Positions 18,346 to 57,992 of a stretch of DNA of 64,000 nt are shown piece by piece. Location of the stretch: positions 2,627 through 66,626 of the IMG/VR virus record IMGVR_UViG_3300037847_004938; one strand, written 5' to 3'. The stretch is from a virus. The notes under the pieces were generated by a model that saw only the letters and a program-made list of their open reading frames with translations, searched no databases and was not told the DNA's origin. Each line of letters opens with the position of its first letter. Position 1 is the stretch's first letter. The position numbers and the translations under genes were made by a program.

Positions 18346-21300
18346 CTAGTCGTCTTTTATTATTGGCCAACCTAATGCACCATTGTTGTCAAATCCTAAA
18401 TCTTTTAATTCGTTTGTTACATGATATAAATAATAATATTCCCATTTATCAAACCTATCACTTGAACTTCCTGGTTTATATGGGGCAACAGAATTATTTA
18501 AAGTTGATCCTGAAGAAACTACCGCATCTTCTATATCATATGTAAAACCTAAGTAATTTGTCGAACCTGAAGCATAATCATTTAAGCCACTTGTTCCGCT
18601 AAAATTACCAGTACTTCCTTGTACAGCTTGTAAATAAGCTTTAAACCCACTGTTATTAGCGCCTTCTACTTGAAATACAACCCCTCTATAAAAATTATTA
18701 TTTGATGAGTTTAAAGTATTTATTCTACTCCTTAAAGTTGCAATATCTGTAGCATGACTTCCTTGTATTTGTCCATCTGCAGGGTTGTCATGATAATCAG
18801 CGCCCTGACTTCCTTGAGCTTCATCTTGGAATAATAAGAAAACAACATTATCAGCATCAGCAGGGAAATTATTATGACCATTACTTAAGAAATCATTTAC
18901 ATCGTTATCAGATAGTGCAGCCCATGTTCTTTCGTTAGACCAACTAGTAGAGTTATTATTATCATCTTCATAAACAATACTCACATGGCTATCATAAGCA
19001 TCACTACCATTAGTAGCGTTATTAGTATTACCACTCGATGCAGTTCCTCCAGTAGCATATAAATCCTGTAATACAGCTTTTAAAGAGTTTGTTTGCATTT
19101 CTCTTAATGCAATCAAAGTGTTGTTCATGGAACCTGATGCGTCAAAATATATGTATATGTAAGTATTCTGTGTTATAGCCAAAGCTTGTGTTGTTACCGT
19201 ACAAACAGCTTCACAAGTACCACCTCTACTAACTTTATATGTAAATGTGTCTGTTAAATCAGCACCAGCTGTATGCGAGTATGTTATGCTAGTCGTCGGA
19301 GATCCACTAACAATAGTGGCAGTTCCGTTGCTTGGTGGGTTTTCTATTGTTAAAGTGTAAGGACTAGGTATTGTGTCATTACTAACTACATTAACTGTTG
19401 AAGAACCTCCATTAGAGATTCCTGTTATTGCATCACCCACTAAGACAGGTAATACATCTCTGTAATCATAAACTATAAACAGGTTTTCATTTGTGTTACT
19501 TCTGTTAAAAGTAAATTGTAACACATTCTCTTCCATAGAGGTTGTTTCAGAATTAGTAACAGATCCAGAAAAATTAGCATTAGTTAAAATATCCGAAACT
19601 GTTGGGTTTGCAGATGCAGTAATCCAATATCCTAAATCATTACAAGGATTAAAATCTCCAGTATGTGCTTGTTTGACACGCAAAGAAGAAATGGTTACTG
19701 TGTCGCCATTTTGTGGTATGGCTGTAGTCCCCATGTCTCCAGAAAACGTTTCAAATCTAGTTGTACCTGAAGCATCAAATGTGTCTGTAACCTCATTAAA
19801 TACATTAACACCAGAATTTTTAAACCTGTTTATTATTGTTTCATTTGCTTGGTAAGCGTCGTTAACTACAAGTATAGTTACATTCATAGTTTCTGGTTCA
19901 GGACATTGGTTGTGTATTGTTACATACGCAACAGATGATTGATTTTCTGTTGGAGCTGCTGTTATAGTTATAACTGCTGTAGGGTCACTTGATGGATTTG
20001 CTCCAAATGTTAGATTACCAGAACCAAACAAACCGTTATGGTTTGTCGTGCTGCCATTATAGTTTATTGATATATTTACATTAGCCGCAGAGACATTATA
20101 AGCAAGTGTATGCGTTCCAGGCTGTGTTACTTTTAGAGTATAGGTGTATGTTTGGCTAACTCTAGCGGTAATTTCTGAATTACACGTTGTTTCTGCTGCT
20201 GCAACAGTTTTAGCTGACTCACCTGGCGTTAAAACGTATTGATTATGTTTTGGATCATAACCTCCTGGATTAAAATGATTTCTATTAGCGTACAATGTGC
20301 TCTTGAAATAAGATTTCATTCCTTGTGCTGATATTGGAGTTATTCCTTGTTGTCCTAACCTCAAAACAGCACCCCTATTTGGATCTGCAAAATATAAACT
20401 GTTTTCGTACGAAGCAAAACTTTCAGGTGATAACCCTATTCCATACTCTCCTGTAAAAGGAACGTCTTGCCCTAATACTTGTTCTATTTGCGTTAAACTA
20501 CCAGTTCCGTCTGGTGCATTTATAATGTTTTTTCCATACAACACTTTTGATACTCTATCTTCTTGAAAAACAATTAAGTCTGATTCTCTACTATGGACTC
20601 TTTGAACAGAACCATATTTCATATCCATAAATTTTGTAATACCTCTACTAGCATTAAACTCATTTAATGTATTGTATGCGTTATTCTCGTTAAATCCTCC
20701 GCTATATATTAGTTTATTTCTACTTTCTAATCTCTCAAAACCTTCTAATAAAGTAACATTTGGTCTTGTATCAATATCTAAATATGGTTCAAACCTATCA
20801 TCTCTTACTGAAATACTTTCTACTGCATTACCAAAACTAAAGCAATTACCAAAGTTTAATTGTGTTATGGCAGGCTGTGAGTTTGATTGATTTTGTTCTG
20901 AACCTTGATGCAATCCACTTTCAATATTGAAGGTTTCATCAGTTTCATAATATATATCACTGTTTAATTCCATTGGGTCTGTTTCAAATATTGTAATACC
21001 ATCAACCAATATAATATCAAGCTTACACGTAAGCCTTCCTCTTTCAAAAAATGCTGTATGCTCTGAAGGTTCCACATGGAGAAGAAATCTATCTGTCCAT
21101 GGAGCTCCTAATGGATGTGCTTGTTTTACTGTGAAAAAATGAAACCCATCTTCTGTAACAGGGTTTGTATCGTCTTGCGCAGGTATAAAAAATTTATTTA
21201 CTGTTTGACCTCCATAATCACCTATATACCCTGAATTTGAAGAAGAGGTTGTAAATGATGTTTTGGCCCATGTTGTTTCTGCGTCTGCCCACAATTCAAA

Positions 21301-34349: not shown

Positions 34350-34910
34350 TTAATTTAAAATTGTACATATATCTCTTGTCATCATTCTGTATAGTTTTTC
34401 ATTATTAATTTCAAACTCATACTCACTGTCTTTTCTAAAATTAACTTTACTCCCTTCTTCTACTCCAAGCTCCTTTAGTTTTTTGTTTGAATATACAACT
34501 ACACCTGTATTTTCCTCTAAACCTTCTTGATGTAAATATTTATTTTCTAATTCAGTGGGTTTTACAAAACAGTAATCATCTACTGAATGCCACTTGTTCC
34601 CGTCATGATATAAATAAAATTGATATGGATCTATTATGTATATATCCCCTTTAAAATAATTAGGAGACTTCCTTGGCCTACCTTTCATGTCATAATATAT
34701 TCTAAATACATTATGATGAACAACCAACGTGTCTCCTTTCTTTATTTCTCCTTTATAATATGATGGGATTTCTATAACCTCTGCAAATCTATTGACATGC
34801 ATATGGTTTGATATATCGCTGTTCACAATCATTTTCTGACCAGCAAGCTCTATTTCGTTATTGTAGTGTGTTCCTTTAGCTTTTATTAAAAAATAAAAAG
34901 GAGATTTCAT
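34350..34910 (-). CDS. Double GroES-like fold protein (phage co-chaperonin-like)
   Basis: Two repeats ending IKKGDTLVVHHNVF and GVEEGSKVNF...EFEI..EKLYRM. Confidence 0.55.
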   Translation of the reverse strand: MKSPFYFLIKAKGTHYNNEIELAGQKMIVNSDISNHMHVNRFAEVIEIPSYYKGEIKKGDTLVVHHNVFRIYYDMKGRPRKSPNYFKGDIYIIDPYQFYLYHDGNKWHSVDDYCFVKPTELENKYLHQEGLEENTGVVVYSNKKLKELGVEEGSKVNFRKDSEYEFEINNEKLYRMMTRDICTILN

Positions 34911-36392: not shown

Positions 36393-38282
36393 TTAACATC
36401 CACTTGCATCGTAGTTACTAACAACACCACTACTATTTACATAGAAATAACCACCACTTGTTGACCCACTACTTGTTCTAAGAGGTGCTCCATACCATTT
36501 GTTACCACCATTAGTACTATTCATTAAGTTTAAGTTATTATCATAAACTTGAGTACCGTTGCCAAATGTTCCTGTAAATCTAATAATAGTATTCTGCGTT
36601 TGGAAACAAGCAAATAAAACCTTGTTATGTGGTCCACTGACATATCTAGTTACATATGATGATTGAGTTGCTTGTTGTTGAACAGCTCCATACGAAGTAC
36701 CAATACTGTTTGTGGCGTAAGCTCTAAAGTAATAAGTAGAAGCGGATGCTAAACCAGTAACAGCTCTACTATAACTACCTGTCGTATTAAACGTACTAGG
36801 ATGAGGTGTAACTTTTGTAACACCAAATGCACCTATTGTAGGAGTTGAAACAGCGTTTGAGTATACAAATCCTTTATCTGTTACGGTAGCATTTCCAGTA
36901 CTAGTCATATTACCATTAAACGTCATGCCATTAGAACTTATACTTGAAGCTAAATTAGTTACAATACCTGGAGCTGTAGCGCTAGTTGTAGTTACAGCTT
37001 CAATATCACCATATGATGTTAAACCACCACCATTACTAGTAGTAGCGTACGCTCTATAATAAAACGTAGTTGAATGTGGAAGGCCTGTTACAGTGCTACT
37101 AAAAGCAGCAGTACCAGATCCTAAAGAACCTGTGTCTGTAACACCACTAACACCTTTTCTTAAATTTACATTAGTTGTTGCTCTTACAAAACCTTTTGCT
37201 GTAACACTTAAACTATCATTAGCTACATCACCATTCATTGTAAAACCTCCAGCTGTTACATTTGTTTCAGCGTTGGTAGTAACACTAGGAAATAAACTTT
37301 CTATATCATTACATATAGTGTTTATAAACGTTGCAATATTACTTGGATCATGATTACTGTTAAAACTACCGCCAGTATTATCTGCATAACCTTGATATAT
37401 ACCATGAACAGATTGAGGATGCGTACCACTATCACTTATAGAACCACATATCATAATTGTAATATTATTGGCAACTGCGTTAGCTGATAATGTACCCATT
37501 TTATTATACTCTTCAGCACCATCAAAAATATCGTCACCATCGCCATCAGGCGCGTTATCTGTCATTAATATTATCATTTTATTAACGCCAGATCTAAAAG
37601 CGCCAGCAAAGTCATGGTTAATAACTCTATCTATAGCTGTATCATTTGGTTCTGGCCCTCCTTCACCATAACCCAACTCCATACTCGTAGCGCTATTACT
37701 GTTTTGGTTTAAATAACTTATTTTTGTATCAAAGTCAGACTTATTTGAATGTGCAAGTGGTACTATAGCTGCGAGATATACATTTGAATCTACACCACCA
37801 ATAAATTTATAAGATGAACTTAGGTTAGCCACAACAGTGTTATTACCGCTCCAATAACTAGGTTGATTATCGTCTTGATCTATTAGCACAGCCGCTAGCC
37901 TATAATCACCACCAGATCTTTCAACAACCTTGTTTGTTATAGTAGCTACATGCGTTTTTAAATCTTCCATGTCATCATCCATTGATCCAGTATAATCAAT
38001 TAAAAATACTACATCCATAGCTAAATTACATGGAATCGGTTCAAAGTCATGGTCATAAGCGTAGAATTCAGACATTGCATGCCCAGCATTACTGTCTGGT
38101 AAATTAGGACTATGAATGTTTAGATTTATATTCCCACCACTCGAATCATCATTACCATCATCACTTAAACCTCGTAAACTAAAAGTATTTTCACCATCTG
38201 CATTATTAGCGGTGTAATCACCCTCGTTCTTTTCAGAAAAGATTTTTAATAGGCTTAACTGCCCTGAACCTGGAACAGCCAT
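36393..38282 (-). CDS. Tail-tip / adhesin protein with vWA and two FN3-like domains
   Basis: N-terminal MAVPGSGQLSL; DVVFLIDYTGSM, GGPEP, ILMTDNAP (vWA); two YY.RAYAT...SYG repeats. Confidence 0.75.
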   Translation of the reverse strand: MAVPGSGQLSLLKIFSEKNEGDYTANNADGENTFSLRGLSDDGNDDSSGGNINLNIHSPNLPDSNAGHAMSEFYAYDHDFEPIPCNLAMDVVFLIDYTGSMDDDMEDLKTHVATITNKVVERSGGDYRLAAVLIDQDDNQPSYWSGNNTVVANLSSSYKFIGGVDSNVYLAAIVPLAHSNKSDFDTKISYLNQNSNSATSMELGYGEGGPEPNDTAIDRVINHDFAGAFRSGVNKMIILMTDNAPDGDGDDIFDGAEEYNKMGTLSANAVANNITIMICGSISDSGTHPQSVHGIYQGYADNTGGSFNSNHDPSNIATFINTICNDIESLFPSVTTNAETNVTAGGFTMNGDVANDSLSVTAKGFVRATTNVNLRKGVSGVTDTGSLGSGTAAFSSTVTGLPHSTTFYYRAYATTSNGGGLTSYGDIEAVTTTSATAPGIVTNLASSISSNGMTFNGNMTSTGNATVTDKGFVYSNAVSTPTIGAFGVTKVTPHPSTFNTTGSYSRAVTGLASASTYYFRAYATNSIGTSYGAVQQQATQSSYVTRYVSGPHNKVLFACFQTQNTIIRFTGTFGNGTQVYDNNLNLMNSTNGGNKWYGAPLRTSSGSTSGGYFYVNSSGVVSNYDASGC

Positions 38283-41200
38283 TATTTTATTTGTTTTTTA
38301 AGTTCTTCTATTTCAGCTTTTAAATCTTTAATAGCCTCAATTAAATAACCTGTTATGTTACCATAAGCTACAGCTTTATATTCACTTTCGTTATTTACTA
38401 GTTCTGGTGCTACTTTTTCTAATTCTTGAGCTATAACACCGCTACCTTGTTTATTATCTTTAGTAAAGCTTACTCCTCTCATTTCATAAACTTTAGATCC
38501 ATCTAAGGTTTCTATGTTTGTTTTAAGTCTTTCATCTGAATAAGCTATTACATCTGCTGTTGCAGTTACACTACCACCAAACGTAGCATTACCTGTACCG
38601 CTTATTTTTAAATCGTATCTTGAGTCTGTTGTATTGTATACAACAAATCCTTGACTATCAACACTTATCTCCCAATCATCATATGATGGTGGAGTGAATT
38701 TTATTTGACCTCCATCATTATCAAGCTCTATATCTCCAGCTACTTTTAATGATGTACTTGTACTACCTGGGTCTAAATAATAACCTGTGCTATCTATATC
38801 AATAAACTTTTTAGTGTAAAAAGTACCACCTTGATGAAACTCATGTGTATATTGTCCACTGTTACCAGTTTTTACTTGTAGTCCATCACCACTTCTTATT
38901 AATTTAACATTTGTATCTCCATCATTGCTAGCAAAACAGAAGTTTGGCTCACTACCACCTTCAGCAGACATAGATGTACCAAATATTAATTTATGTTCGT
39001 GAGTTGTACTAGTTGATGCTGTACTAGTAGGGTTTGTAGAAATACTTATTTCACTAGATAGAGCTTCAATAGTAAAGTAATAAGTAGCAGCATTAGAAGA
39101 ACCAGATTTATAAGACATGGTATATTGACCATTACTATCACCTTCTACTTTTATAACTCCATCAGTGTAGTTACCACACGATGATGTTATGTTTACATCT
39201 TGATGATGATTAACAATAATTTGAGCTGTAAAAGCTCCAACATGACTATTACCATGTGATGTACCTGTAACTTTTACTACACTAGCTAACTGACTATTAT
39301 CAGTTGTTATTTCAAAAACTCTAACATAAGAGTTACTAATAGAAGCTGTACAATATTTTCTGTGTGGTGTTGTTATTGGTTTTGGGAAAGTAACTTTTTG
39401 AGTTGATCCATCAATAAGAATAGCATCTGTATTATCAGTTTGCAATATTAAACTATTTCCTGTTGTAGTTCTGATTGTACCAGAACCACTAGTAAAGCTC
39501 ATTCTTCTACTTGAACCATTTATATTTAAATCTGTAGTTCCTTCAATATGAACATCTCCTGTTATAGACATTCTATGTGATCCTCCAGCATAAAAAACTT
39601 GAGTATCAGAGCCACTAAATCCCCAGTATGTATTAAGATCTCCTTTGTGTCTTATATAATCATCAATATGTATTTGATTCAGTATTGAATCACTCGCTGG
39701 ATTTACAAGATAATTAGTATTATCTGCATCGTAATATACAGGAGAATCTATCCTGGTTTTAGCTATATATCTTTGAATTCTTCTAGTTTGTGCATCTGTT
39801 ATTTTATATATTTCAGAACTTGCTAAATACCAAGTAAACACCTCATTAGCACTACCGCCATTTACATAAATATGGCCACCACTACTGAAAGACCCACTAT
39901 CACCACAATGTGATACTCTTACATACCATTCAAATTTACCTGTACCAGCATTATCAGTTAAGAAATAAGATGTTTTATTAGTACCTTGAGCATTTTCAGC
40001 TATTTCAAATGTTTTACCTGTTTCTAGTTTAGCTTGGAATACTTGTACAAAAGTCTGATTGTTTGCAGCACTTATTGTTTGATAGAAACCACCACGTCCA
40101 GGGCTTGTATTGTTACCATTATTGTAAATTCTTATAACCTTACCAGATGAATTTGGTGCTATTTGATTTAACGTTGTTCCATCTTCTTCGTGAAAATGTT
40201 GAACACCTGAACCGCCTTGATTATTATAAACATTAACACTATTACTACCATCTACAAAATCTTCATCTCCATAAACAGCTGTTCCTGCACCTCTAACGAA
40301 TGCTGCTATTGGATTCCAAGGACCTCTTTGTGTAGAGTTGTTTGGCATATCTAATACCTTATAACCATCTATTTCTAAAACACCTGCGTTGATTGTACTA
40401 TAAGTGAGAGTACCATTAACCGTTATATCGTTAACAGTTAAGTTGTATAAATTACTACTACCATTTGGATTTAAAATATAACTGGTATCTGCTGAATCAT
40501 AAAATTGAGGAGCTCTCCAGTCATTATTAGCCGTACAAACACCATTTGCAGCTAATGTTACATTATTTGAACCTGATGAATTTCTAACAAAGACTCCATT
40601 GGTTGTTTGCATATACCAATAATCACTATGATATTGTATCTTACCTACTTGTTCACCACTCCAAGTATGACTATCAGCGTGCCATGCACCTGTTGTTCTA
40701 AGTGATGTGGTTGCTGCAGGATCTATATATCTATTGGTGTTGTTTGTATCATAGAATATAGGCGCTCTATGAGAACCTATCACAATCATATTGCCTAGAC
40801 CATCTAAATGACCTTTTTCTACATAACTACCAGATGCCTTACTAACATAATACCATCCTTCATCAGCAGCGTCAGCGTGCTCTACAAATGTCATTTGGTG
40901 ACCACCTGTAATAGCCAAAGTACTTTGACCAGTTGTAACTTTTCCTCTCAAAGTTATGAAATGGTTATCATTTCCATAACCTGCAATTAGCCCATAAGTA
41001 TTAGTACCACCTGTATGAAGGGTAAGCCTACCCGTTACAACATCTAACGTGCTGTCAACAGTAGTAGCGCCATTTAAATAAGTTGTTCCGTTATTATAAA
41101 AATCATACGAACCATGAACACTAGTGCTTTTCACAGCAAACTTACCTGATGTGTTACCACTATCCATATCCATGTGGTCAACTACACTCGTGCTTCCTGG

Positions 41201-44200
41201 ATTTACATAAAAAGCTGTATTATTTGAATCGTAGAATATAGGTGCATAAAAATTACCTCTATCAACATATAGTCCTCCTGCAGATTCTAATCTTATAGTT
41301 GTTTTAGAACCTGTAGCATATGAGTCAGTAGTAGATAAATACATTCTAGTACCATAACTACCATCTGTTCTTACATATATTCCCCCTTGTGCTGTAGTTC
41401 CAGAACTACTATCAGAAGCACCAAATGTTATTGAGCCTCCACCATGATCTGTAGCTACATTGGGATCTATGTGTATGGATCCTTTTCCTGTACCTTGTGT
41501 AGTAGCATCCCAAACTGTACCATCGTGTACATCTAACTGTCTAAGAGAACTTCTTGATCCTGGATTAGTAAAATAGGCAGTATCATTTGAATCATAGAAT
41601 ATAGGTGCTAACATTTCTGTTCCAGCTTGTATATATGCAGAATAAAATCTACCATGAGTTTGTAATGTAGTTGAAGTAACAAGATTAAAATTAGTCGTAG
41701 GGTTTTTTGTAAAATAAGAAGTGCTTGTAGTTTGTGCTATATTCCAATCACCAATCCAGTCTATAGCTGTGCTATAAAACTCAGCACCATGTACTTTATG
41801 AACATGAACAGTAGCATAACTCCATGTTGACGTTGTTTCACCAATAGCAATACATCTTCTTTCATTACTTCCATCATTTCTTCTACCTAGATAAATAGGT
41901 TTACTCATAGAGCCTATAACTCTAACACCAGCATTATACCATTGTGTAGTACTAGTATTACTATTACCTCCACTATTCCAGTTATGACCACCGACTATAA
42001 TTTTAGTGGCATGATCACTACTATATTCGTATACGTCTATTTCCATATACATCATATCGTAGTTGTTTAACGTACCAGGTAAATCAATTACAATCTGACC
42101 TGTTGTACTACCACTACCGCTCCATAATGCGTTTTGACCTGGGTATGCAATTTTAGGATAAGCATCATCACCTATCCCTAAATGACCATGCACTACAGTT
42201 TTATCAGTCATAGCATTACCTAAAATAGTATTACCTGTAGCAGTTATACTACCTATATTAACTAAATTCCTGCTGGAATCCATTACATAGGTACCGTTTA
42301 ACTGATATGATGACATATTAGAATTAGATGCGTGTACAGTACCAGCTGCTCTTATTGATGTTCCTGTATTAGCAAAGTCTCCGTAGTACGTTGTATCGGC
42401 TGAATCATAGAATATTGGAGCTCTTTTGGATGCTTCAGAAAATGAATTACCACTGCTATCAAAGAATGTTCTGTTTGTACCACCACCACCAGGTCTTATT
42501 TCTAAATTACCACCATTATTTGTAGCAAAATCCCAAGTTACACTGCCATTGTCTTGAAATCTTACGTAAGACCAGCTATCGTTAGAGTCTAGTTCAATTC
42601 TAGCGTAAGAAGAACTATCAATTCTGAAACCATCGGACCTTGTTGTTTTAAATTGATTGTCTTGACCATCAATGAGAGTAGATGACAAGTATAGCTGAAC
42701 ACCTGTAGCAGCTCTGAAGCTCATGGTATCATTACCATGGTTATAATATATTTCTCCCGCGTTGTCATCAGCATTATCACCAAATGCTATAACACCATAT
42801 TGTTTACCATTACCTCTTAATGTAATACCAACACCATCAGATGCTGAATTACCACCTAATATTACTAAGTCTTCTGCGTATGAATATCCTTGACCATCTG
42901 GGTCAGTTGTGTTTATACCTACTTTTCCAGTTAAATGTAAATCACCTGACTCTTCAAGAGTTAATAAAGTTCCACTAGAGCTTCCTAAAGTAGCAGCACC
43001 AATTGAAAACTTATTTGTACCATTATTATTAGTATCTATGTTAATTCTTACATCACCGTAAGAGTTTAATGTTATATTATCGTTATAAGATTCATCTTTT
43101 GTAGATGTTATTGAGTGCTGGAAATTTGTTCCGTAGCTATCACTATCCCATGTAAAAAACAAACCACCAAATCTGTATAGTTTAGAAGATTCATTATTTA
43201 CATATCTACCATAAATATGATCAGTAGTTACTACTTCACCTACAGTTAAAGAATTTATATTAGTAGCACTAGCTGGATTAACATAATAACCAGTGTCATT
43301 GTGATCATAAAATATTGTACCTCTTAATGATCCAGTTGCTTTAAAATCACCAAGTATAAAACTACTACTAGCATCTCCTGAAAATCTAGCAAACTCTACT
43401 TTATTATTTTTATTATATAAATGTAAAGTACCAGCACTAGTACTATCATTATTAATCCACATTTTCCAAGATTCCCAAGCAGAAACCATATGTGTACTAG
43501 CACCACCAAACGTAATGTGATCTTCGTTATCTGACCATATATTTAATTTTGATCTAAACGTTGTAGAGGTTGCAGTTGTAGCATCTAAGCCATAGTCACC
43601 TCTTCTATGTGGATATATAGATATTGATCCATCACCCACAACAATATCATCATCAGCGTATTCACCATTATTACTACTACCAGATGTGAATGATCCAACT
43701 CTTACTTGAGAGCCAGATGTATATAGTCTTATATCACCATTATTTTTTACTGTTAAACCATCACTATCTATTCTTACTCTATCGCTATTACCAGTTCTAA
43801 GATCAATTTGATCTCCACTATTAGCTACGTCAATCATTCTTCTTACACCGTTCTCACTAGACCACGCCCACCATGTAGATATATTAGTACCATTACCAAA
43901 CCCAAAACCATCAGTTGAATTTTTTGCATATATAGCGTTATTTTCTAAAGTACCGCTATCCCAAGCTACAGGTATTCTTACCTTTAAGTTACTTGTAAGC
44001 GTACTAGTATCAGCTATAAGCCTATCACCACCACCTACATGTAATTTCCACGAGTCAGCGCCATTAAATCCAAAATAAGTATTAGTATCTCCTTTGTGAA
44101 CTATATAATCATCTAACTCAATGTCATTCATTACGCTAGTACCTGATGGATTAACATAATAAGATGTATTATCATAATCATAAAACAAAGTTCCTCTTAT

Positions 44201-45817
44201 ATCAGAGTTACTTACTATTCTACCATAACTAGATATCGTTGCGCTATCTAAATGTGCATATGCTCCATTAGTGCTAAAAACAAATCTATTACCATCGTCT
44301 ATTCTTAAAACTCTTGTATCACTACCACCATCTCTAGCTGTTGTAAAATCAACAGCCAATGCATCATTTTCAGCTTTGATTTTAAAGTAATCATCGCCAC
44401 TACTACCTCTTGTTTTTTGCCATACCATATGCGGCTCATACGCTTTAGCTGTAATTACTGTAGTGTCATTATCTTCTACTAGTAAACCATTACCTAAATT
44501 TAATTGACCACTACTAACTGTAATATTAACATTTGAGGTTAAACTATCTCCGTCTGACCATATTGCTAGTCTATTAGCGGCACCTGTTCCATCTACATCT
44601 CCTCCAGAAACACTACCCCATTCTAATGTAGTTCCAGACGAAGGCACCTTTAATACTTGCCCTGCGCTTCCCATTGTTTTAGGGAATATATATGCACCAT
44701 TGAATTTTATGTTTTGACTATTATCTATAAATAAAGCTTCTGTTCCCGACACACCACTCGCTCCTGTTTGGAATTTAAGACCTCCTTGTCCATTTACAGA
44801 CATTATAGCTGTGGATGTCTCTACACCTAAAGCCCCTCTATTTCCACCACCGTCTGATAAAAATAAATAAGGTTGTATTGTATTAGTAGTTGTATCATGG
44901 TTTTGTAAGTATAAAACAGCTGCGGTAGTTGAATTACTTCTCATAGCTGAAATACCAGACACATCTAATTTAGAAGACCCTGTTTGTAAATCACTAGTTG
45001 TATTTAATCTAAATTTATTAACTTGGCTAGTTCCATCAGGGTCTACATAATATGCTGTATTAGATTGAGCATAATACGCTGCACCAAAATAACTGAAACT
45101 ACCCAAATACATATTACCATATCCATATAATCTCCTATTATTATCTATCTGTAACGCTGTCCATGCCGAAGGTATAGATGTACCTACTGTACCGTCTGTA
45201 TCACCTCCTGACGAGTTTTCTGGCTCATCTACATAGAATGAAATTGTTTTATCACTACCACTACTACCACCTTTAAATTCTATACCTGCTACGTTACCCC
45301 AATTATTATTTGCTGCATTACTTGCTCTTTTGTAATTAGTGCCATCAAATCTTAAATTAGTACCTACCCATGATCTCCATACTCCTTGTGTTGTAGACCA
45401 TATTGATACATTTCTAGAATATCCAGCTGCCATGCCTTGACCACCAATACTAAATAAATTGTTACCATCTGATGATGATACAGGGTCTGATTGAAATTGT
45501 TGATATGTTTGAAGCGTAGCTCCTTTTATAGATAAATCACCTTCAACACCTACATCACCATAAAACGTAGCGTGCTTAGCGTTATTAATTATTAAAGCGT
45601 GATTATTGTAAGTTCCATTAACAGCTACTCTAAAATCAGCGCCCCATCCTTGTAAGAATACAGATGAAGAATCTTTTAATTCTATCTGACCAATACTGTT
45701 ACTGCCTTCGCTTATTTTGACGTAATTATTTCCATCATTAACCGTTAATACACCATCAACTAGTGTCAGATTACTGCTAGATTCTAAACTTACATCTGAA
45801 AAGAATTTTTGTGCCAT
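38282..45817 (-). CDS. Long modular tail fibre with C-terminal peptidase S74 intramolecular chaperone
   Basis: YSDERLKTNI...GVIAQELEKVAPELV...VAYGNITGYLIEAIKDL; G/S/T/N-rich beta repeats. Confidence 0.9.
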   Translation of the reverse strand: MAQKFFSDVSLESSSNLTLVDGVLTVNDGNNYVKISEGSNSIGQIELKDSSSVFLQGWGADFRVAVNGTYNNHALIINNAKHATFYGDVGVEGDLSIKGATLQTYQQFQSDPVSSSDGNNLFSIGGQGMAAGYSRNVSIWSTTQGVWRSWVGTNLRFDGTNYKRASNAANNNWGNVAGIEFKGGSSGSDKTISFYVDEPENSSGGDTDGTVGTSIPSAWTALQIDNNRRLYGYGNMYLGSFSYFGAAYYAQSNTAYYVDPDGTSQVNKFRLNTTSDLQTGSSKLDVSGISAMRSNSTTAAVLYLQNHDTTTNTIQPYLFLSDGGGNRGALGVETSTAIMSVNGQGGLKFQTGASGVSGTEALFIDNSQNIKFNGAYIFPKTMGSAGQVLKVPSSGTTLEWGSVSGGDVDGTGAANRLAIWSDGDSLTSNVNITVSSGQLNLGNGLLVEDNDTTVITAKAYEPHMVWQKTRGSSGDDYFKIKAENDALAVDFTTARDGGSDTRVLRIDDGNRFVFSTNGAYAHLDSATISSYGRIVSNSDIRGTLFYDYDNTSYYVNPSGTSVMNDIELDDYIVHKGDTNTYFGFNGADSWKLHVGGGDRLIADTSTLTSNLKVRIPVAWDSGTLENNAIYAKNSTDGFGFGNGTNISTWWAWSSENGVRRMIDVANSGDQIDLRTGNSDRVRIDSDGLTVKNNGDIRLYTSGSQVRVGSFTSGSSNNGEYADDDIVVGDGSISIYPHRRGDYGLDATTATSTTFRSKLNIWSDNEDHITFGGASTHMVSAWESWKMWINNDSTSAGTLHLYNKNNKVEFARFSGDASSSFILGDFKATGSLRGTIFYDHNDTGYYVNPASATNINSLTVGEVVTTDHIYGRYVNNESSKLYRFGGLFFTWDSDSYGTNFQHSITSTKDESYNDNITLNSYGDVRINIDTNNNGTNKFSIGAATLGSSSGTLLTLEESGDLHLTGKVGINTTDPDGQGYSYAEDLVILGGNSASDGVGITLRGNGKQYGVIAFGDNADDNAGEIYYNHGNDTMSFRAATGVQLYLSSTLIDGQDNQFKTTRSDGFRIDSSSYARIELDSNDSWSYVRFQDNGSVTWDFATNNGGNLEIRPGGGGTNRTFFDSSGNSFSEASKRAPIFYDSADTTYYGDFANTGTSIRAAGTVHASNSNMSSYQLNGTYVMDSSRNLVNIGSITATGNTILGNAMTDKTVVHGHLGIGDDAYPKIAYPGQNALWSGSGSTTGQIVIDLPGTLNNYDMMYMEIDVYEYSSDHATKIIVGGHNWNSGGNSNTSTTQWYNAGVRVIGSMSKPIYLGRRNDGSNERRCIAIGETTSTWSYATVHVHKVHGAEFYSTAIDWIGDWNIAQTTSTSYFTKNPTTNFNLVTSTTLQTHGRFYSAYIQAGTEMLAPIFYDSNDTAYFTNPGSRSSLRQLDVHDGTVWDATTQGTGKGSIHIDPNVATDHGGGSITFGASDSSSGTTAQGGIYVRTDGSYGTRMYLSTTDSYATGSKTTIRLESAGGLYVDRGNFYAPIFYDSNNTAFYVNPGSTSVVDHMDMDSGNTSGKFAVKSTSVHGSYDFYNNGTTYLNGATTVDSTLDVVTGRLTLHTGGTNTYGLIAGYGNDNHFITLRGKVTTGQSTLAITGGHQMTFVEHADAADEGWYYVSKASGSYVEKGHLDGLGNMIVIGSHRAPIFYDTNNTNRYIDPAATTSLRTTGAWHADSHTWSGEQVGKIQYHSDYWYMQTTNGVFVRNSSGSNNVTLAANGVCTANNDWRAPQFYDSADTSYILNPNGSSNLYNLTVNDITVNGTLTYSTINAGVLEIDGYKVLDMPNNSTQRGPWNPIAAFVRGAGTAVYGDEDFVDGSNSVNVYNNQGGSGVQHFHEEDGTTLNQIAPNSSGKVIRIYNNGNNTSPGRGGFYQTISAANNQTFVQVFQAKLETGKTFEIAENAQGTNKTSYFLTDNAGTGKFEWYVRVSHCGDSGSFSSGGHIYVNGGSANEVFTWYLASSEIYKITDAQTRRIQRYIAKTRIDSPVYYDADNTNYLVNPASDSILNQIHIDDYIRHKGDLNTYWGFSGSDTQVFYAGGSHRMSITGDVHIEGTTDLNINGSSRRMSFTSGSGTIRTTTGNSLILQTDNTDAILIDGSTQKVTFPKPITTPHRKYCTASISNSYVRVFEITTDNSQLASVVKVTGTSHGNSHVGAFTAQIIVNHHQDVNITSSCGNYTDGVIKVEGDSNGQYTMSYKSGSSNAATYYFTIEALSSEISISTNPTSTASTSTTHEHKLIFGTSMSAEGGSEPNFCFASNDGDTNVKLIRSGDGLQVKTGNSGQYTHEFHQGGTFYTKKFIDIDSTGYYLDPGSTSTSLKVAGDIELDNDGGQIKFTPPSYDDWEISVDSQGFVVYNTTDSRYDLKISGTGNATFGGSVTATADVIAYSDERLKTNIETLDGSKVYEMRGVSFTKDNKQGSGVIAQELEKVAPELVNNESEYKAVAYGNITGYLIEAIKDLKAEIEELKKQIK

Positions 45818-48391: not shown

Positions 48392-48536
48392 ATATTTTAA
48401 TCAAAGTGATTATCTGCCTTGTCCTCTATATCTCTTCTGGTAGTTTCTGCTACTCACGCATTTTGAAGATTTTGTTTTTGCGTGGACTCCAGGTCTTTTC
48501 TTTCTTTTGGCTTTTACGTATGGCTTATATATTATT

Positions 48537-48857
48537 CTAGCCATCCTTTTTTAATTCATAAACAAGGTCTTGAATAAATTTACTATTTACATCAAGTTTA
48601 AAATCTAATCCTGCTTGAAAAGTTCTAACTATTTTACCGTTTTTTTCTATGAGTATTACAGGAACAGATTTTATTTGACTCTTTAATTTTGGACCTTGGT
48701 CTTCAAGCCAAGCGTAATCATATTTGCATCCTCTTAGATTTTCAAGATATAATGTATTTTGCTGATTCCACTTAGCGTTTATTTGCACTACTCTTATTTG
48801 TTGGCTATAACTACTATAGCTGAAAAATAAGAATAAAATTAAAATTAATTTTTTCAT
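48537..48857 (-). CDS. Secreted thioredoxin-fold protein lacking CxxC (copy 2)
   Basis: Signal peptide MKKLILILFLFFSYSSYS|Q; VVQINAKWN...IKSVPVILIEKNGK. Confidence 0.6.
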   Translation of the reverse strand: MKKLILILFLFFSYSSYSQQIRVVQINAKWNQQNTLYLENLRGCKYDYAWLEDQGPKLKSQIKSVPVILIEKNGKIVRTFQAGLDFKLDVNSKFIQDLVYELKKDG

Positions 48858-49162
48858 CTTTTATAAACTTTGTCTTCTAATTCTTTTATTGATTCTTTAT
48901 TTTCTAGTATATCTTCTTTTAATACTTCTGTTGATTTTTCTATTTGTATAATAGTACTCCTAACAAGTTCATCTTTTAATTGAAACTCCATTTTTTGAAC
49001 AAACTCTTCACTACTAAAGTTATCAATCTTACTATTCATTTCTTGTATTTCTCCTTGTAGAGTAAACCACATACTAGCCAGTGCTATTACACCACCCACC
49101 AACATTCCTATTGTTTTTAAATCTAGTTTTACCTCTGTGTCTTCACTAATTTTTTTTGCCAT
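48854..49162 (-). CDS. Membrane-anchored coiled-coil protein (copy 2)
   Basis: One N-terminal TM segment followed by heptads; paralogue of 51928..52233. Confidence 0.7.
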   Translation of the reverse strand: MAKKISEDTEVKLDLKTIGMLVGGVIALASMWFTLQGEIQEMNSKIDNFSSEEFVQKMEFQLKDELVRSTIIQIEKSTEVLKEDILENKESIKELEDKVYKR

Positions 49163-49185
49163 CGTTTTTTATTTTATGTTCACAA

Positions 49186-49647
49186 TCATTGTTTTTTAAA
49201 AATGCTCGTTGCTTTTTCTGTCGTCCTTCCTCCGAAATAAGCTAGAACAACAGCCATCATCACCTTCTCAAAAGTGTCATTCCAAGTAACACCTATGTTA
49301 AAAGGAATTGATTCTACGCTGTCTAATATGCCTGCTAATGAAAAAATAGTTATACACCAAACTAAAACCAGCGGACGCACATTCTTCGAAAGCCATGAAT
49401 CGCTAGCAGCGTCTGCTTGCCATCTGTTAGTTATAGATTCAATCTCTTTATTCTGTTGTTCGTAAATTAATTGTTGAAGTTTAATTTTATCTTCATTACT
49501 TACATCAGATTTACCTATTGCTGCAATTGCTTCTTTAGGACTTGTAACACCTTGTAACACACTACCAAGAGTTGGGTTTATCATACCAGCAGCTCCTAAT
49601 AATAGTTTACCTACAGTTGTGTTTTTAAATTTCTTCTTGTCGCTCAT
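49186..49647 (-). CDS. Holin (3TM / GTA-holin-like)
   Basis: RWQAD..SDSWLSKNVRPLVL...AYFGGR; adjacent to the endolysin. Confidence 0.75.
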   Translation of the reverse strand: MSDKKKFKNTTVGKLLLGAAGMINPTLGSVLQGVTSPKEAIAAIGKSDVSNEDKIKLQQLIYEQQNKEIESITNRWQADAASDSWLSKNVRPLVLVWCITIFSLAGILDSVESIPFNIGVTWNDTFEKVMMAVVLAYFGGRTTEKATSIFKKQ

Positions 49648-50105
49648 ATTACCATGTATTTAGTTTTTCCATCTTCTTTATATGCCTTCAAACATCTATT
49701 TCTGTTTTTTTGTGCATCTACATATGAAACGTGAACCCAAGCTGGGTTTTGATCCGTTCCAAATTCCCAAATCATTTGATCATAATCAAGATTTGCTTTT
49801 ATCCAATCAAACATTGCCGCATTAGAAGCGTGACCATAAACATCATCTATATCTATCGCTTGACCTTTACAATGCTGAGATTTTGTAGAACCTCCTATAG
49901 CTTTGTTAAGTTCTGGCGATCTATAAAAAGAATTAATCTTTATAGGTCCGCCCACCCAATCCCTCAAAGGTTGAAAAATCATTTCTGCTACAGTCATCAT
50001 GTTTCCAAGATGTTCATCCGTAGGGGTGTTGTCTATCCCTCTCCTCTTTGCTGTTTCAGAGTGGATAGCTTCATTATACGATACATTTTTTGATAACTTA
50101 TCCAT
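49644..50105 (-). CDS. Endolysin, peptidase M15 family (Zn)
   Basis: SFYRSPELNKAIGG...SQHCKGQAID...DQMIWE...WVHVSY; start moved to ATG 50105. Confidence 0.9.
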   Translation of the reverse strand: MDKLSKNVSYNEAIHSETAKRRGIDNTPTDEHLGNMMTVAEMIFQPLRDWVGGPIKINSFYRSPELNKAIGGSTKSQHCKGQAIDIDDVYGHASNAAMFDWIKANLDYDQMIWEFGTDQNPAWVHVSYVDAQKNRNRCLKAYKEDGKTKYMVI

Positions 50106-50107
50106 TA

Positions 50108-50149
50108 TCAACATCCATTACAAAATGGGCAATTAAAATCACATTCCAT
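50108..50149 (-). CDS. 13-aa Cys-rich micro-peptide MECDFNCPFCNGC
   Basis: Translated by hand. It exactly fills the gap between the upstream stop (50154) and the endolysin ATG, and has an A-rich leader. Confidence 0.5.
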   Translation of the reverse strand: MECDFNCPFCNGC

Positions 50150-50153
50150 ATTT

Positions 50154-50294
50154 TTATTTTTTAAGTGCTCGTTTTACTGCTTTAGCTTTCGCTTTTATCT
50201 TATTAGCTTTAGCTATTATTATATCATCCACGGTAGTTTTACTCCATAATAAAACCCACATGTCTTTCCAATATTCTTTAGTTAATTTCCACAT
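50154..50294 (-). CDS. 46-aa Trp-rich cationic amphipathic peptide
   Basis: Translated by hand: MWKLTKEYWKDMWVLLWSKTTVDDIIIAKANKIKAKAKAVKRALKK. Starts 1 nt after the beta-barrel stop. Confidence 0.7.
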   Translation of the reverse strand: MWKLTKEYWKDMWVLLWSKTTVDDIIIAKANKIKAKAKAVKRALKK

Positions 50295-50295
50295 A

Positions 50296-51585
50296 CTATC
50301 TTAATGTTATATTTAATCCAAAATTAGTTTGAAATAGTTCTGACTCCCAGAACTTTGTATATTCTCCCTCTACAAATATACCAAAGCTTTTGCTTACTTT
50401 CCAGCCGAACATTAATCCAGCTTGATAGTCTGACCACTGCTCTGGCGTTGAATCTTTTCTTAAACCTCCTTTACCCCAATTATTTCTATTAAGATAATTA
50501 AAATCATCATCTCCTTTTAAATACTTGTGGTAAGGTAAAATCCAATTTCCATAAGCATGAAGCCAAAAATTTCTTTTATAATGATAAAAATCAAAACCTG
50601 CTATAGGTGCAATCTCTGCGTACGGATCAAGAGTGTCAAATATTTCTTGATTGTATCTATTCATCAAATCTCCAAACACTTCATCTCGAAATTGTAAGTC
50701 TGAATAAGCTACAATATTACCCTGTTCATCTCTCCATATCCAATCATACATTGTGTTTCCTGTACTTATATCTGTATAAGAAGTAAAGTGATCACTATAA
50801 CCGTATTCGTATCCAAGACTGTACCAAGGGTTTGCAGTATATTCATTACCAAAATCATCTACCGCTATTTCATTCAGCCATATTTCAATTGGGTTATATC
50901 CATAAGCTTTTTGATGTGTACGATATATAGCGCCTGCAGATATACTAAACTTCTTACCTATAGGTAATCTAGCTCTAACTTCTCCAGACAAGTATTCGAA
51001 ACCCACATTTCCAGACTCTCTGTTCTCAAATTTTACAATATGGTACTTACCTGTGTGTCTTACAAAAACTCTTTTATTGTTAAACTCATCACCATCTCTT
51101 CTTTCCTTTTCCCAGTGTAATAAATATTCTAAACCTTTGACTGCTGCAGTAGGTGCAGATAAACCAACATTACTTTCAGTTCCGTTGTAAAAGTTGTTTT
51201 CTTTAATTTCATATCCAAACCTTGCTAACTTTCTAATTCCTATTCCATATCTGTAATCAAATGGATGATAAACTGTTTGGTCTATTACCTCTGGTATTGC
51301 ATATAAATCATCTGGGTCAGTTCTTACAAAATACTCTGAATTTTCTATTTTTGCGTTTCCTACATTACCTGCTGCGTAAAATGTTCCATACTTAAGAAAA
51401 TCATCGTATAGCTGATTAAAAAAGCTCTTTGCTTTATATTTTTTTACAATCTTGTTTTCTAATTTTTTATCTGTGTCAATAACTTGAGCTGTTAAAGTTG
51501 AGCCAAATATCATAATCATAAAAAACACTACTAAAAATAATAATGCTTTTGAAGTAAACTTTTCTGTGGTTTCTTTTCTATTCAT
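50296..51585 (-). CDS. Secreted putative outer-membrane beta-barrel protein
   Basis: Signal peptide ...GSTLTA|Q; alternating aromatic beta strands; C-terminal SFGIFVEGEY.K.W...NFGLNITLR. Confidence 0.6.
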   Translation of the reverse strand: MNRKETTEKFTSKALLFLVVFFMIMIFGSTLTAQVIDTDKKLENKIVKKYKAKSFFNQLYDDFLKYGTFYAAGNVGNAKIENSEYFVRTDPDDLYAIPEVIDQTVYHPFDYRYGIGIRKLARFGYEIKENNFYNGTESNVGLSAPTAAVKGLEYLLHWEKERRDGDEFNNKRVFVRHTGKYHIVKFENRESGNVGFEYLSGEVRARLPIGKKFSISAGAIYRTHQKAYGYNPIEIWLNEIAVDDFGNEYTANPWYSLGYEYGYSDHFTSYTDISTGNTMYDWIWRDEQGNIVAYSDLQFRDEVFGDLMNRYNQEIFDTLDPYAEIAPIAGFDFYHYKRNFWLHAYGNWILPYHKYLKGDDDFNYLNRNNWGKGGLRKDSTPEQWSDYQAGLMFGWKVSKSFGIFVEGEYTKFWESELFQTNFGLNITLR

Positions 51586-51586
51586 A

Positions 51587-51931
51587 TTAAAACTTGCTTT
51601 CTATTATTTCATCAATTTCTTTTTCTAGAAGATCTACTGTATCTTCTGGTAACTTAAGTGATATACCACTTTCTATTCTAATAACCTCTTCTCCATCATT
51701 ATATAATATAATTGTTGGGAGGTATTTAATTTTTTCTTTCTCAAACACTTCTTTTTTTTCTACTATAGAAAAAGTATAAATGTTATAATCATCAAATATT
51801 TTTAGAGATATTTCTGCCTCTTTAGTAAAAGGAGCGCTGAATTGAACTATTGATATTTCGTCTTTAAAACTCTGACCAAAAGCATTAGAGGTTAGAATTA
51901 AAAAAACAATAATATTAATTAAGGATTTCAT
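51587..51931 (-). CDS. Secreted thioredoxin-fold protein lacking CxxC (copy 1)
   Basis: Signal peptide ...SNAFG|Q; ISIVQFSAPF...IKYLPTIILYNDGEEV. Confidence 0.6.
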   Translation of the reverse strand: MKSLINIIVFLILTSNAFGQSFKDEISIVQFSAPFTKEAEISLKIFDDYNIYTFSIVEKKEVFEKEKIKYLPTIILYNDGEEVIRIESGISLKLPEDTVDLLEKEIDEIIESKF

Positions 51932-52233
51932 CTCTGTTTGCTTATTTCATAGAGCCTTTCATCCATTTTTTTCAATTGTTCTTTTATTTCACCAACATCC
52001 TCTTTTACAGAATTAACGTCTAATTCAATTTTTTCTACTGTACTTCTGACTAATTCGTCTTTATATTGAAACTCGATTGAGCTTACTTCAGGTTCTGGCA
52101 ACTCCCTAGCTTCTTGAATTTGAGCTTGAAGGGTAAAGTATGTTCCTGCAAGCATTACCGCTCCAGCTATTAACATACCTATTGTTTTTAAATCTAATTG
52201 TACATTCGTGTTTTCACTAATTTTTGTCGCCAT
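51928..52233 (-). CDS. Membrane-anchored coiled-coil protein (copy 1)
   Basis: MATKISENTNVQLDLKTIGML...TM...EFQYKDELVRST; start moved to 52233 by alignment with its paralogue. Confidence 0.7.
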   Translation of the reverse strand: MATKISENTNVQLDLKTIGMLIAGAVMLAGTYFTLQAQIQEARELPEPEVSSIEFQYKDELVRSTVEKIELDVNSVKEDVGEIKEQLKKMDERLYEISKQR

Positions 52234-56387: not shown

Positions 56388-57992
56388 TTATTTATTTATT
56401 TCTTCTTTTTTTATTCTTTTATTTGAAACAACGCAAGATGTTGTTAAAATAACACCTGCAACTGATGCTGCGTTTAAAACTGCGTTCTTTGTTACTTTGA
56501 ATGGATCTATAATGCCTGCTTTATACATATCTGTAAATTTTTTGTTTTTTACATCATATCCATAATTTAACCTACCTGCCATACAAACTTTATATGCAGG
56601 TTCTGGATTCTCTCCTGAATTTTCAACTATCTTCCTGAATACATCAGAAAGCGCATCAAATACAATATTATAGCCTACCTTGAAAGAATCGGAAGAGCTT
56701 CGAGGGGCTTTTTTGCGATTTTTTTTCTTAGTAGCATTTAACAGAGCTGCTCCTCCACCAGCAACTATACCCTCTTCTAAGGCTGCTTTTGTTGCATGGA
56801 TGGAATCATCAACCCTATCTTTCTTTTCTTTAAGCTCTACATCTGAGTTACCTGCTAATTTTATAGTAGCTACACCTCCAGCTAGTTTTGATAACCTATC
56901 TTTTAGGTGCCACTTATCAGATTTATTCTTTGTAAGCTTTATTTCATTGGTTAGCCATTCAATTGTTTCTAGCTTTTTTGGATTCTCTTCACCTTCAAAC
57001 ACTAAAATTGTCTCATTTATGTCTGAAATCATGGTTTTACACGTTCCAAGGTAGCTAGAATCTATATTTTGTGCTGAATCACCAGATAATTCTGAAATTA
57101 TACGAGCTCCTGTCATCAAACACAGGTCTTCGAGTAATTCAAACCTCTTAATTCCTATTCCTTCTGGTGTGATAAAGTTTGCAGTTAAGTTTTTCTTGTT
57201 AATATTCTGTGTAATAAACAATTTTACCCTATCATCAAGCTCAGATATGATTAAAAGTGGTCTTTTTTGCTTAATTGATGCTTCAAAAGCAAAATGTAGT
57301 CTTTCGTGCATGTCAATTTTAGTATCACTTATTACAATTAGTGGATTTTGAAACTCAACTGTACGTTTTCTTAGATTATTGACAGAAAAAGGAGTGCCGT
57401 AGCCTTTTTTGATACGTGTACCATTAGTAATTTCAGTATAATCTTCGTTTGTGGAGGACTCGTCCATAGTAACTACCCCATCTTTACCTACTTTATTGTA
57501 AGCATCTGCAATCATATTACCTAAATACGTGTCTCCATTTGCTGAAATCGTCGCTACTTCTACCAGACTAGCTTCGGTGACGTCTTTTTTGTTTTTTTCC
57601 AAAATTGACACCACATCTTTTGCAGCTTGTTCTATACCTTCTTTAGCTTGAGTCACATTATCTATCATTTCCACTTCTTCAAAACACCTATCTATGATCG
57701 CTTTTGCTAAAACACACGACGTAGTTGTACCGTCACCAGCTTCTGTCGCCGTTTTTTGGGAGGCTTGACGTAAAATACTAACACCTAAGTTTTCTACAGG
57801 GTCTGATAATACTATACTGTTTGCAACAGTTACTCCGTCTTTAGTTACGTGGGGGGTTCCAAATTGGTCTTCGATAATTACTGTTCTACCAGATGCTCCA
57901 AGAGTGGAGGCTACAGCTTCAGATAATATATCTATACCCTTTTTAAGGTTATAACGGCCTTCAGAACCAAAGGATATGTTCTTTTCTATCAT
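56388..57992 (-). CDS. groEL: Group I chaperonin GroEL (viral type)
   Basis: VTKDGVTVA, AGDGTTT, ATISANGD, KLAGGVA, EEGIVAGGG, GIIDP.KV; no GGM tail. Confidence 0.95.
   Translation of the reverse strand: MIEKNISFGSEGRYNLKKGIDILSEAVASTLGASGRTVIIEDQFGTPHVTKDGVTVANSIVLSDPVENLGVSILRQASQKTATEAGDGTTTSCVLAKAIIDRCFEEVEMIDNVTQAKEGIEQAAKDVVSILEKNKKDVTEASLVEVATISANGDTYLGNMIADAYNKVGKDGVVTMDESSTNEDYTEITNGTRIKKGYGTPFSVNNLRKRTVEFQNPLIVISDTKIDMHERLHFAFEASIKQKRPLLIISELDDRVKLFITQNINKKNLTANFITPEGIGIKRFELLEDLCLMTGARIISELSGDSAQNIDSSYLGTCKTMISDINETILVFEGEENPKKLETIEWLTNEIKLTKNKSDKWHLKDRLSKLAGGVATIKLAGNSDVELKEKKDRVDDSIHATKAALEEGIVAGGGAALLNATKKKNRKKAPRSSSDSFKVGYNIVFDALSDVFRKIVENSGENPEPAYKVCMAGRLNYGYDVKNKKFTDMYKAGIIDPFKVTKNAVLNAASVAGVILTTSCVVSNKRIKKEEINK

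Follow-up and report, generated by a model that had tools for sequence, protein, structure and literature searches.

How phages of the Bacteroidota pass the outer membrane at lysis is largely unexplained, and the question is raised again by a block of nine open reading frames (ORFs) in a 64,000-nucleotide stretch (hereafter the window) of the IMG/VR virus record IMGVR_UViG_3300037847_004938, a genome of 66,626 bases rated 100% complete. The grammar of a Gram-negative lysis cassette is a holin, an endolysin, and an outer-membrane component. In this block a holin candidate and an M15 endolysin are accompanied by two pairs of genes, each coding for a membrane-anchored protein (A) followed by a secreted thioredoxin-fold protein (B), and by a gene for a predicted outer-membrane β-barrel. 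The region is best explained as the lysis cassette of a marine Bacteroidota podophage, and A-B together with the barrel may form a spanin-like outer-membrane-disruption system, with A as its inner-membrane stalk, B as a periplasmic partner that carries no lipid, and the barrel (or, in relatives, a lipoprotein family here called LP0) as the outer-membrane anchor. We hold this reading tentatively, at slightly short of an even chance.

Two-component spanins consist of a helical inner-membrane i-spanin with N-in/C-out topology and an adjacent lipoprotein partner, according to the part of the source available to us (PMC6139136). For phages of Bacteroidetes, the unimolecular spanin is the only type reported in the accessible text of a further source (PMC12596118), and among cultured flavobacterial phages a spanin is reported for few, and only of the predicted unimolecular type, in the portions at hand of two papers (PMC8776804, PMC12596118). 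The titles and abstract openings of the papers retrieved on spanins and lysis cassettes describe no module such as the present one; supplementary tables of spanin surveys might list calls in related phages. The families of the module, which are abundant in marine viruses, lack Pfam domains, and the only PHROGs with a functional name that they match, weakly, are "holin" families. Should the module prove to be the missing outer-membrane step, it would provide a marker for lysis-cassette annotation in a major marine virus group, and it would represent both a new lipid-anchor-free way of linking two membranes and a non-redox job for the thioredoxin fold.

Cassette layout and gene linkage

The nine ORFs claimed by the original prediction are all present, on the minus strand and in the order that it described (aa, amino acids):

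51928-52233, minus strand: A1, 101 aa, predicted type-1 membrane-anchored coiled-coil protein
51587-51931, minus strand: B1, 114 aa, type-1 secreted thioredoxin-fold protein lacking Cys, ending in ...SKF
50296-51585, minus strand: barrel, 429 aa, secreted, predicted outer-membrane β-barrel
50154-50294, minus strand: P46, 46-aa cationic ORF with net charge +9
50108-50149, minus strand: ORF of 13 codons, four of them for Cys, which overlaps the start of the endolysin gene
49644-50114, minus strand: endolysin, 156 aa, Peptidase_M15_3
49186-49647, minus strand: holin candidate, 153 aa, with a 4-base overlap with the endolysin stop
48854-49162, minus strand: A2, 102 aa, predicted type-2 membrane-anchored coiled-coil protein
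48537-48857, minus strand: B2, 106 aa, type-2 secreted thioredoxin-fold protein without a C-terminal aromatic residue

Gaps between these ORFs range from -4 to +23 bases, and no terminator-like site was found on the minus strand between 47500 and 53500. The start of A1 was taken as the ATG at 52233, one base past the stop of the upstream gene. An ATGA overlap had been claimed for each A/B pair, and both junctions indeed read ...AGATGAAA.

Scans of IMG/VR gave 57 loci with the barrel, at least 535 stretches with the A profile, and at least 329 with the type-2 A profile, the best 80 of each profile being kept. Across 137 viral loci, 135 of 139 A genes have B as the next gene; the remaining four sit 0-76 nucleotides (nt) from the end of their locus, and 62 of the 135 A-B junctions have the 4-base overlap. 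Moreover, A is present in 55 of the 57 barrel-selected loci, the remaining two beginning inside the barrel gene, and a barrel without A-B was never seen. The conserved linkage proposed for the module was thus recovered in the neighborhood survey. The proposal that A, B, and the barrel make up one unit stood in part: A-B is constant, and the barrel is missing from 8 of the 44 unique loci selected by A that have 2.5 kb or more of flanking sequence, a sample not biased toward the barrel (36 with the barrel, 5 with LP0 only, 3 with neither).

The second pair is linked to the lysis genes. Among 65 unique type-2 pairs, an endolysin or holin is no more than 150 nt away from 46 and no more than 1.5 kb away from another 13; in most loci the pairs stand between or beside the two genes, in several permutations and with a spacing of 0-5 nt, so that type-2 pairs are core cassette genes. 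The commonest orders are A, B, endolysin, holin (15/77 loci) and endolysin, A, B, holin (10/77). The adjacent endolysin may be of the M15_3, the Amidase_2 (60.3 and 52 bits against a cut-off of 26), or the phrog_3000/33083 type, and since these three families are unrelated, the linkage survives replacement of the enzyme.

The wedging of type-2 pairs at the endolysin and holin with such close spacing, the persistence of the linkage across endolysin families, and the terminator-free block all argue against taking the linkage as mere genome packing around a device for superinfection exclusion or envelope remodeling, which would bar other phages from entry or modify receptors, comparable with T4 Imm/Sp or with phage-encoded outer-membrane proteins and porins. 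We regard such a function as quite unlikely, although the module does encode proteins for all three envelope compartments and, in some genomes, lies beside ribonucleotide-reductase-like genes (recognized by eye), far from the holin. Exclusion would also be consistent with the unusual conservation of the barrel (64-90% identity among its best 120 relatives) and with the existence of porin-like barrels in uncultured phages, named OmpC or phosphate-selective porin in the BFVD rows.

Regarding the lysis enzymes, the M15 endolysin was confirmed by Pfam Peptidase_M15_3 (59.5 bits against a cut-off of 23.2) and by phrog_894 "endolysin" (1.2e-29); it has relatives in 210 phage records, and no N-terminal membrane anchor was seen in its sequence. 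The holin candidate matches phrog_3427 "holin" (2.6e-17) and reaches 22.3 bits with Pfam GTA_holin_3TM, under the cut-off of 24.8; its helices were recognized by eye, and its relatives are annotated as holin in Vibrio phages. In one marine metatranscriptome run (n = 1), error-free contigs lie over the holin (49392-49543, 152 nt) and the endolysin (49678-49841, 164 nt); reliable cover of A, B, and the barrel was absent and, as carried-over DNA is possible, the run is uninformative on expression.

Two small ORFs of the original prediction were retained only in part. The 46-aa cationic peptide exists as an ORF, and it is a shortened representative of a family of cationic proteins of 79-84 aa, whose genes as a rule overlap the start of the endolysin gene, with homologues adjoining the endolysin in L001, L052, L053, L057, and L036. 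The 13-codon Cys ORF is open, as stated, and is probably not a gene, no conserved counterpart having been noticed between barrel and endolysin in related loci. In L008 (6275-6508) and 11 other loci, P46 is replaced in this position by a 77-aa protein with apparently two transmembrane helices, which may be a second holin or an antiholin. Furthermore, a very basic 44-aa ORF without Pfam match (window 48410-48544, minus strand) overlaps the end of B2 by 8 bases; it has relatives of 41-45 aa in 18 barrel-selected loci, often in or beside the lysis cassette, with the common motif ...KRPGVHSK...YKGQG.

Among 185,579 species genomes, A was found only on 11 contigs, all of them from metagenome-assembled genomes and not from isolates; six are labeled as Bacteroidota lineages. 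In deposited phage genomes, searches at the DNA level and by tblastn returned no match for the region, the barrel, A1, or two divergent barrel relatives. Near-identical DNA is held by marine metagenome runs of several studies, and in the ESM Atlas A and the barrel each fall in virus-only, unnamed clusters.

Predicted folds of A, B, and the barrel in comparison with spanins

A1 and A2 are paralogues, as had been claimed (50% identity, E 7e-31). The idea of a duplicated module stood as to the presence of two paralogous pairs and failed as to a recent duplication, for the A tree separates two old types: A1 groups with L061 (support 97) among barrel-adjacent genes, and A2 joins the second A genes of L094, L097, and L112 (support 99), the second pairs of this group coming from loci with the order A, B, barrel, A, B, endolysin, and the group is sister to the barrel-less type-2 clade. 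By their sequences, A1-B1 and A2-B2 are two anciently diverged subfamilies (type 1 and type 2). At least three other lineages hold both types of pair, and up to three A paralogues are found within one cassette.

The AlphaFold2 (AF2) model of A1 has a predicted local distance difference test (pLDDT) value of 78.7 and helices at residues 15-44 and 52-100, corresponding to a short N-terminal tail, one predicted transmembrane helix (residues ~15-35), a Pro-rich break, and a 49-residue helix. The latter, with pLDDT of 76-92 by block, would provide the helical or coiled-coil periplasmic domain of an i-spanin. No Pfam or NCBIfam match of A1 reached its cut-off.

B1 and B2 share 27% identity (E 2e-8). 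With a profile built from 24 B proteins, solved thioredoxins score E 8e-11 to 1e-4 among the matches listed, including a 128-aa thioredoxin at 4.5e-9, with 206 sequences of the Protein Data Bank at E up to 1. The B proteins had been described as keeping the cis-Pro loop and lacking CxxC, and this agrees with the alignment, where P72 is invariant and the CxxC position is replaced, reading Phe/Trp-Asn-x-x-Asn in the long B forms versus W-C-G-P-C in thioredoxin. In comparison with the thioredoxin superfamily, B therefore shares the profile match and the cis-Pro loop and differs in the absence of CxxC. Because this motif is replaced and B1 has no Cys at all (B2 has one, internal), B is predicted to be incapable of redox chemistry. 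The short forms, B1 and B2, lack an N-terminal part found in forms of 133-147 aa.

As the original prediction had noted, the residue directly after the predicted cleavage site is Gln in all three of B1, B2, and the barrel (by eye); the B alignment has an invariant Q20, and our own Gln-site pattern, in which the cleavage region is small-x-small then Gln, fits 86 of 110 B proteins. This does not set the module apart, for a Gln after the signal-peptide cleavage site is the general Q-rule of Bacteroidetes in the accessible parts of two sources (PMC5837995, PMC10653852), and a third, likewise available in part, reports it for phage proteins (PMC10367356).

Regular-expression scans also agreed with the prediction in finding no lipobox in the cassette genes. 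A crude scan of the 66.6-kb genome gave 11 Cys-containing candidates, of which one was judged a convincing lipobox: a 60-aa ORF at genome positions 1139-1321 on the plus strand (G000, L155), outside the window, near the genome end, and in a region of short peptide repeats. It was not found in five related records, two of them at least 90% complete. Consequently, the view that the complete genome holds no conserved canonical spanin was upheld, the only good lipobox ORF lying far from the cassette and not having been found in the five relatives. The claim of a lipoprotein-free system holds for this phage and not for the whole group, as the cassette of relatives often includes LP0, a genuine lipoprotein family. 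Its members have 115-140 aa and a Tyr/Asn-rich tail and match no named family; in 35 of 38 occurrences (not deduplicated) LP0 is no more than 60 nt from A, B, endolysin, or holin, and in many relatives it accompanies the type-2 pair. A third A type, unpaired and with an acidic DxDxDG-like N-terminal tail, likewise has no named family, and in L184, L163, L221, and L226 it stands directly beside LP0, the canonical i-spanin/o-spanin layout. The regions of the third A type and LP0 are:

L184, 5168-5865
L163, 2386-3083
L221, 3322-3997
L126, 3623-4282

The expected barrel fold of the 429-aa protein was supported by an AF2 model with ~14 long strands (DSSP) and a mean pLDDT of 78.9, whose top structural matches are outer-membrane barrels: CymA (Z 11.5), Omp33 (11.2), OmpG (10.8), and Tsx (10.2). 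The top Foldseek and VIA rows hold outer-membrane barrels only, and the Foldseek template-modeling scores (TM-scores) are low, so that no specific family emerges. The protein has a predicted signal peptide, N-terminal helices that would be periplasmic, and long loops. The low-confidence segment 120-150 (conservation 0.56 against an average of 0.48) may be periplasmic, on a parity argument only. The strands bear alternating charged residues, as in water-filled pores. Relatives of the barrel end in a β-signal-like G-[LI]-N-[YI]-x-[LIF]-[FRKY], many divergent members ending in Phe/Tyr, and the window barrel ends in ...NITLR. No Pfam, NCBIfam, or functionally named PHROG family was matched; a large protein collection holds 2428 relatives, none with a Pfam domain, in 263 clusters at 50% identity.

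Phage-encoded outer-membrane proteins are known, lambda Lom being one. With Lom and the porin-like proteins of BFVD, the barrel shares a signal peptide, the β-barrel, and the C-terminal β-signal-like motif; it differs in belonging to a separate family without Pfam domain, always beside A-B and usually in a lysis cassette. A viral UniProt protein of 342 aa (BFVD A0A516LKJ4) has the same fold (TM 0.63/0.78) at 24% identity. An enzymatic role was considered and rejected: OMPLA, LpxR, and omptin are among the fold and Atlas neighbors, and invariance is confined to residues of Gly, Glu, Arg, and Tyr, without a conserved His/Ser/Asp set.

Among known systems, A-B is likened most to the two-component spanin. 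As with lambda Rz/Rz1 and T4 PseT.3/PseT.2, the genes of A and B adjoin and overlap each other within a lysis cassette; the product of the first has an N-terminal transmembrane helix and a helical part predicted to be periplasmic, and that of the second is exported. In relatives, moreover, an A-family gene adjoins that of a genuine small lipoprotein. The o-spanin, however, is a short Pro-rich lipoprotein, whereas B is a folded thioredoxin-like protein exported through signal peptidase I, with Gln at +1 and without a lipobox Cys; Rz has two coiled-coil domains, whereas the single long helix of A measures ~50 residues and A lacks Cys; and with A-B a barrel would take part. A-B is placed outside the two-component family because the defining lipobox test failed. 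The unimolecular spanin (T1 gp11) acts at the same lysis step, and in the same host phylum, as proposed for the module, and it needs an N-terminal lipobox and a C-terminal transmembrane helix in one protein; no cassette protein has both, and the whole-genome scan placed no lipobox ORF in or beside the cassette.

Longer proteins containing A or B were also read. A search for the former found 21, and the nine that were read included four A-B read-throughs in which the signal peptide of B was kept, two A-A, and one barrel-A. As Rosetta-stone evidence these fused ORFs (P0272-P0285, rare singletons) were rejected; because the A-A and barrel-A forms make no topological sense, they are most likely frameshift or assembly errors at tightly packed junctions. 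One longer B protein (n = 1), encoded on a 2-kb contig and carrying the N-terminus of a flagellar-rod protein ahead of B, was taken as a chimera.

Proposed mechanism and competing explanations

The spanin-like reading, with the barrel supplying the hold on the outer membrane, was preferred because A fits an i-spanin in size, helix content, and gene arrangement, B is exported and translationally coupled to A, and the genome has no conserved lipobox ORF. Under this proposal, A would be the inner-membrane component, oriented N-in/C-out, with an N-terminal transmembrane helix, a Pro-rich hinge, and a helical periplasmic stalk of ~7 nm. B would be made in step with A, exported via Sec and signal peptidase I, and would bind A as a redox-dead thioredoxin-fold partner replacing the lipoprotein o-spanin. 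In type 1, a phage barrel assembled by the β-barrel assembly machinery (BAM) would hold the outer membrane, probably via the C-terminal Phe/Tyr of B. The type-2 pair (A2-B2) would be barrel-independent, its hold coming from LP0, often present in relatives, or from a host component. After the holin has fired and the endolysin has removed the wall, the complexes would pull on or destabilize the outer membrane.

The step from B to the barrel draws on the C-terminus of B. All 71 B genes directly upstream of a barrel gene code for a C-terminal aromatic residue. Of the 110 pairs that are complete, all 96 linked to a barrel have Phe, Tyr, or Trp as the last residue of B, and none of the 14 others has; these comprise 10 pairs without a barrel and 4 second pairs of type 2, B2 among them. 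A contact between this C-terminus and the barrel is thereby suggested, not significantly. The full three-tier machine, namely a stalk (A), an adaptor (B) joined through its C-terminal aromatic residue to a BAM-assembled barrel, and a barrel-independent type-2 pair alongside, would be unlike any described and appears doubtful to us; if true, it would be the first lysis system anchored to the outer membrane by a β-barrel and not by a lipid.

Several observations weigh against the spanin-like proposal as a whole. When mapped on the tree, the association between the C-terminus of B and the barrel reflects no more than two independent changes (p 0.5 in a sign test), and one later barrel-linked B ends in ...KFR. 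B has neither the signal peptidase II lipobox nor the lipidated Cys of an o-spanin, and searches of Pfam, PHROGs, and NCBIfam matched no module protein to a named spanin family. The stalk of A is short (~50 helical residues), and its N-in charge bias is weak, with a mean of 2.5 Lys/Arg before the transmembrane helix against 1.4 in the 15 residues after it. The module is also not always inside a lysis cassette, given that in two complete LP0-A-B genomes (n = 2) a holin homologue lies ~27 kb off, and that in a barrel-A-B lineage the M15 endolysin was not found in five records, one of them complete. A predicted complex of A (36-101) with B (20-114) scored 0.01 and is uninformative either way.

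Two further points on this side bear on another explanation: phrog_1296 "holin" is weakly matched by 5 of 25 A proteins (best E 4e-5), and one third-type A (n = 1) matches phrog_10340 "holin/anti-holin" at E 0.009, which was counted as a weakness. In T4, the holin T, its only holin, works with the periplasmic antiholin RI. By analogy, the module could control the timing of lysis and not the breaking of the outer membrane, with a holin/antiholin-like A, with B as a periplasmic regulator like RI, and with a barrel that relays an outside signal, e.g., superinfection. T4 T/RI likewise combines a small secreted protein with one that has a single transmembrane segment and a periplasmic domain, and A is small, its one transmembrane helix being accompanied by a strongly charged C-terminal region. 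The charge bias of A for N-in is weak, its paralogues number up to three in one cassette, like holin/antiholin sets, and the module adjoins the holin and the endolysin. We nevertheless consider timing control unlikely: the T4 system has no barrel or lipoprotein, whereas here a separate holin homologue is encoded in the window, as in both complete genomes examined; the similarity to the PHROGs is weak and confined to transmembrane or coiled-coil regions; and the strict coupling of A to a secreted protein, together with the alternation of barrel and lipoprotein, better fits an envelope-spanning device.

The barrel itself might stand apart from lysis, as an independent channel or decoy with B1 as its chaperone or plug, leaving lysis to the type-2 pair or P46 only. 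Its best folds are monomeric 12-14-strand channels (CymA, OmpG, Tsx, KdgM), and its absence from part of the A-selected loci, the pore-like charge pattern of its strands, and the tracking of the barrel by the aromatic C-terminus of B are all compatible with this. Against this, the barrel was never found without adjacent A-B; it also lacks the His/Ser/Asp set that would suggest an enzyme. As for P46, it could be the outer-membrane disruptor instead, a further point against the spanin-like proposal: it has a high positive charge, its relatives overlap the endolysin gene, and it resembles the disruptin, a cationic peptide of phage phiKT (gp28) according to the part of the preprint available (bioRxiv 10.1101/515445). 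Both are small and cationic, P46 standing at the endolysin gene; the likeness is by description only and concerns the P46 family, not A, B, or the barrel. Relatives of P46 were detected in only 11 of the 57 barrel-selected loci, and this explanation as a whole seems very unlikely to us.

Source genome, host, and neighboring genes

Elsewhere in the window are genes for a portal protein, a large terminase, virion proteins, a primase/helicase, and GroEL-like and GroES-like proteins. The terminase shares 62% identity with that of an uncultured freshwater podovirus and ~42% with those of Flavobacterium phages; 87 records match it, Cellulophaga and Tenacibaculum phages among them. Based on these relatives and on the GC content of 30-37%, the host is most likely a member of the Flavobacteriia, with which the Gln at +1 of the signal peptides agrees.

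The closest deposited relative by terminase is MW202828.1 (L156), where no match to A was found. Upstream of its M15 peptidase (L156 2423-3491) lie a 150-aa protein with several transmembrane segments and a 207-aa protein with an N-terminal transmembrane helix and a strand-rich C-terminus, which may be a different solution to the same lysis step.

Within the window, the GroEL-like gene lies at 56388-57992 (minus strand; phrog_5725, 2e-130) and the GroES-like gene at 34350-34910 (minus strand; phrog_13932, 6e-21). Finally, three giant ORFs were observed: 7751-14773 (2340 aa), without PHROG match; 18346-23742 (1798 aa), matching a virion structural family; and 38282-45817 (minus strand; 2511 aa), with a C-terminal tail-fiber domain.

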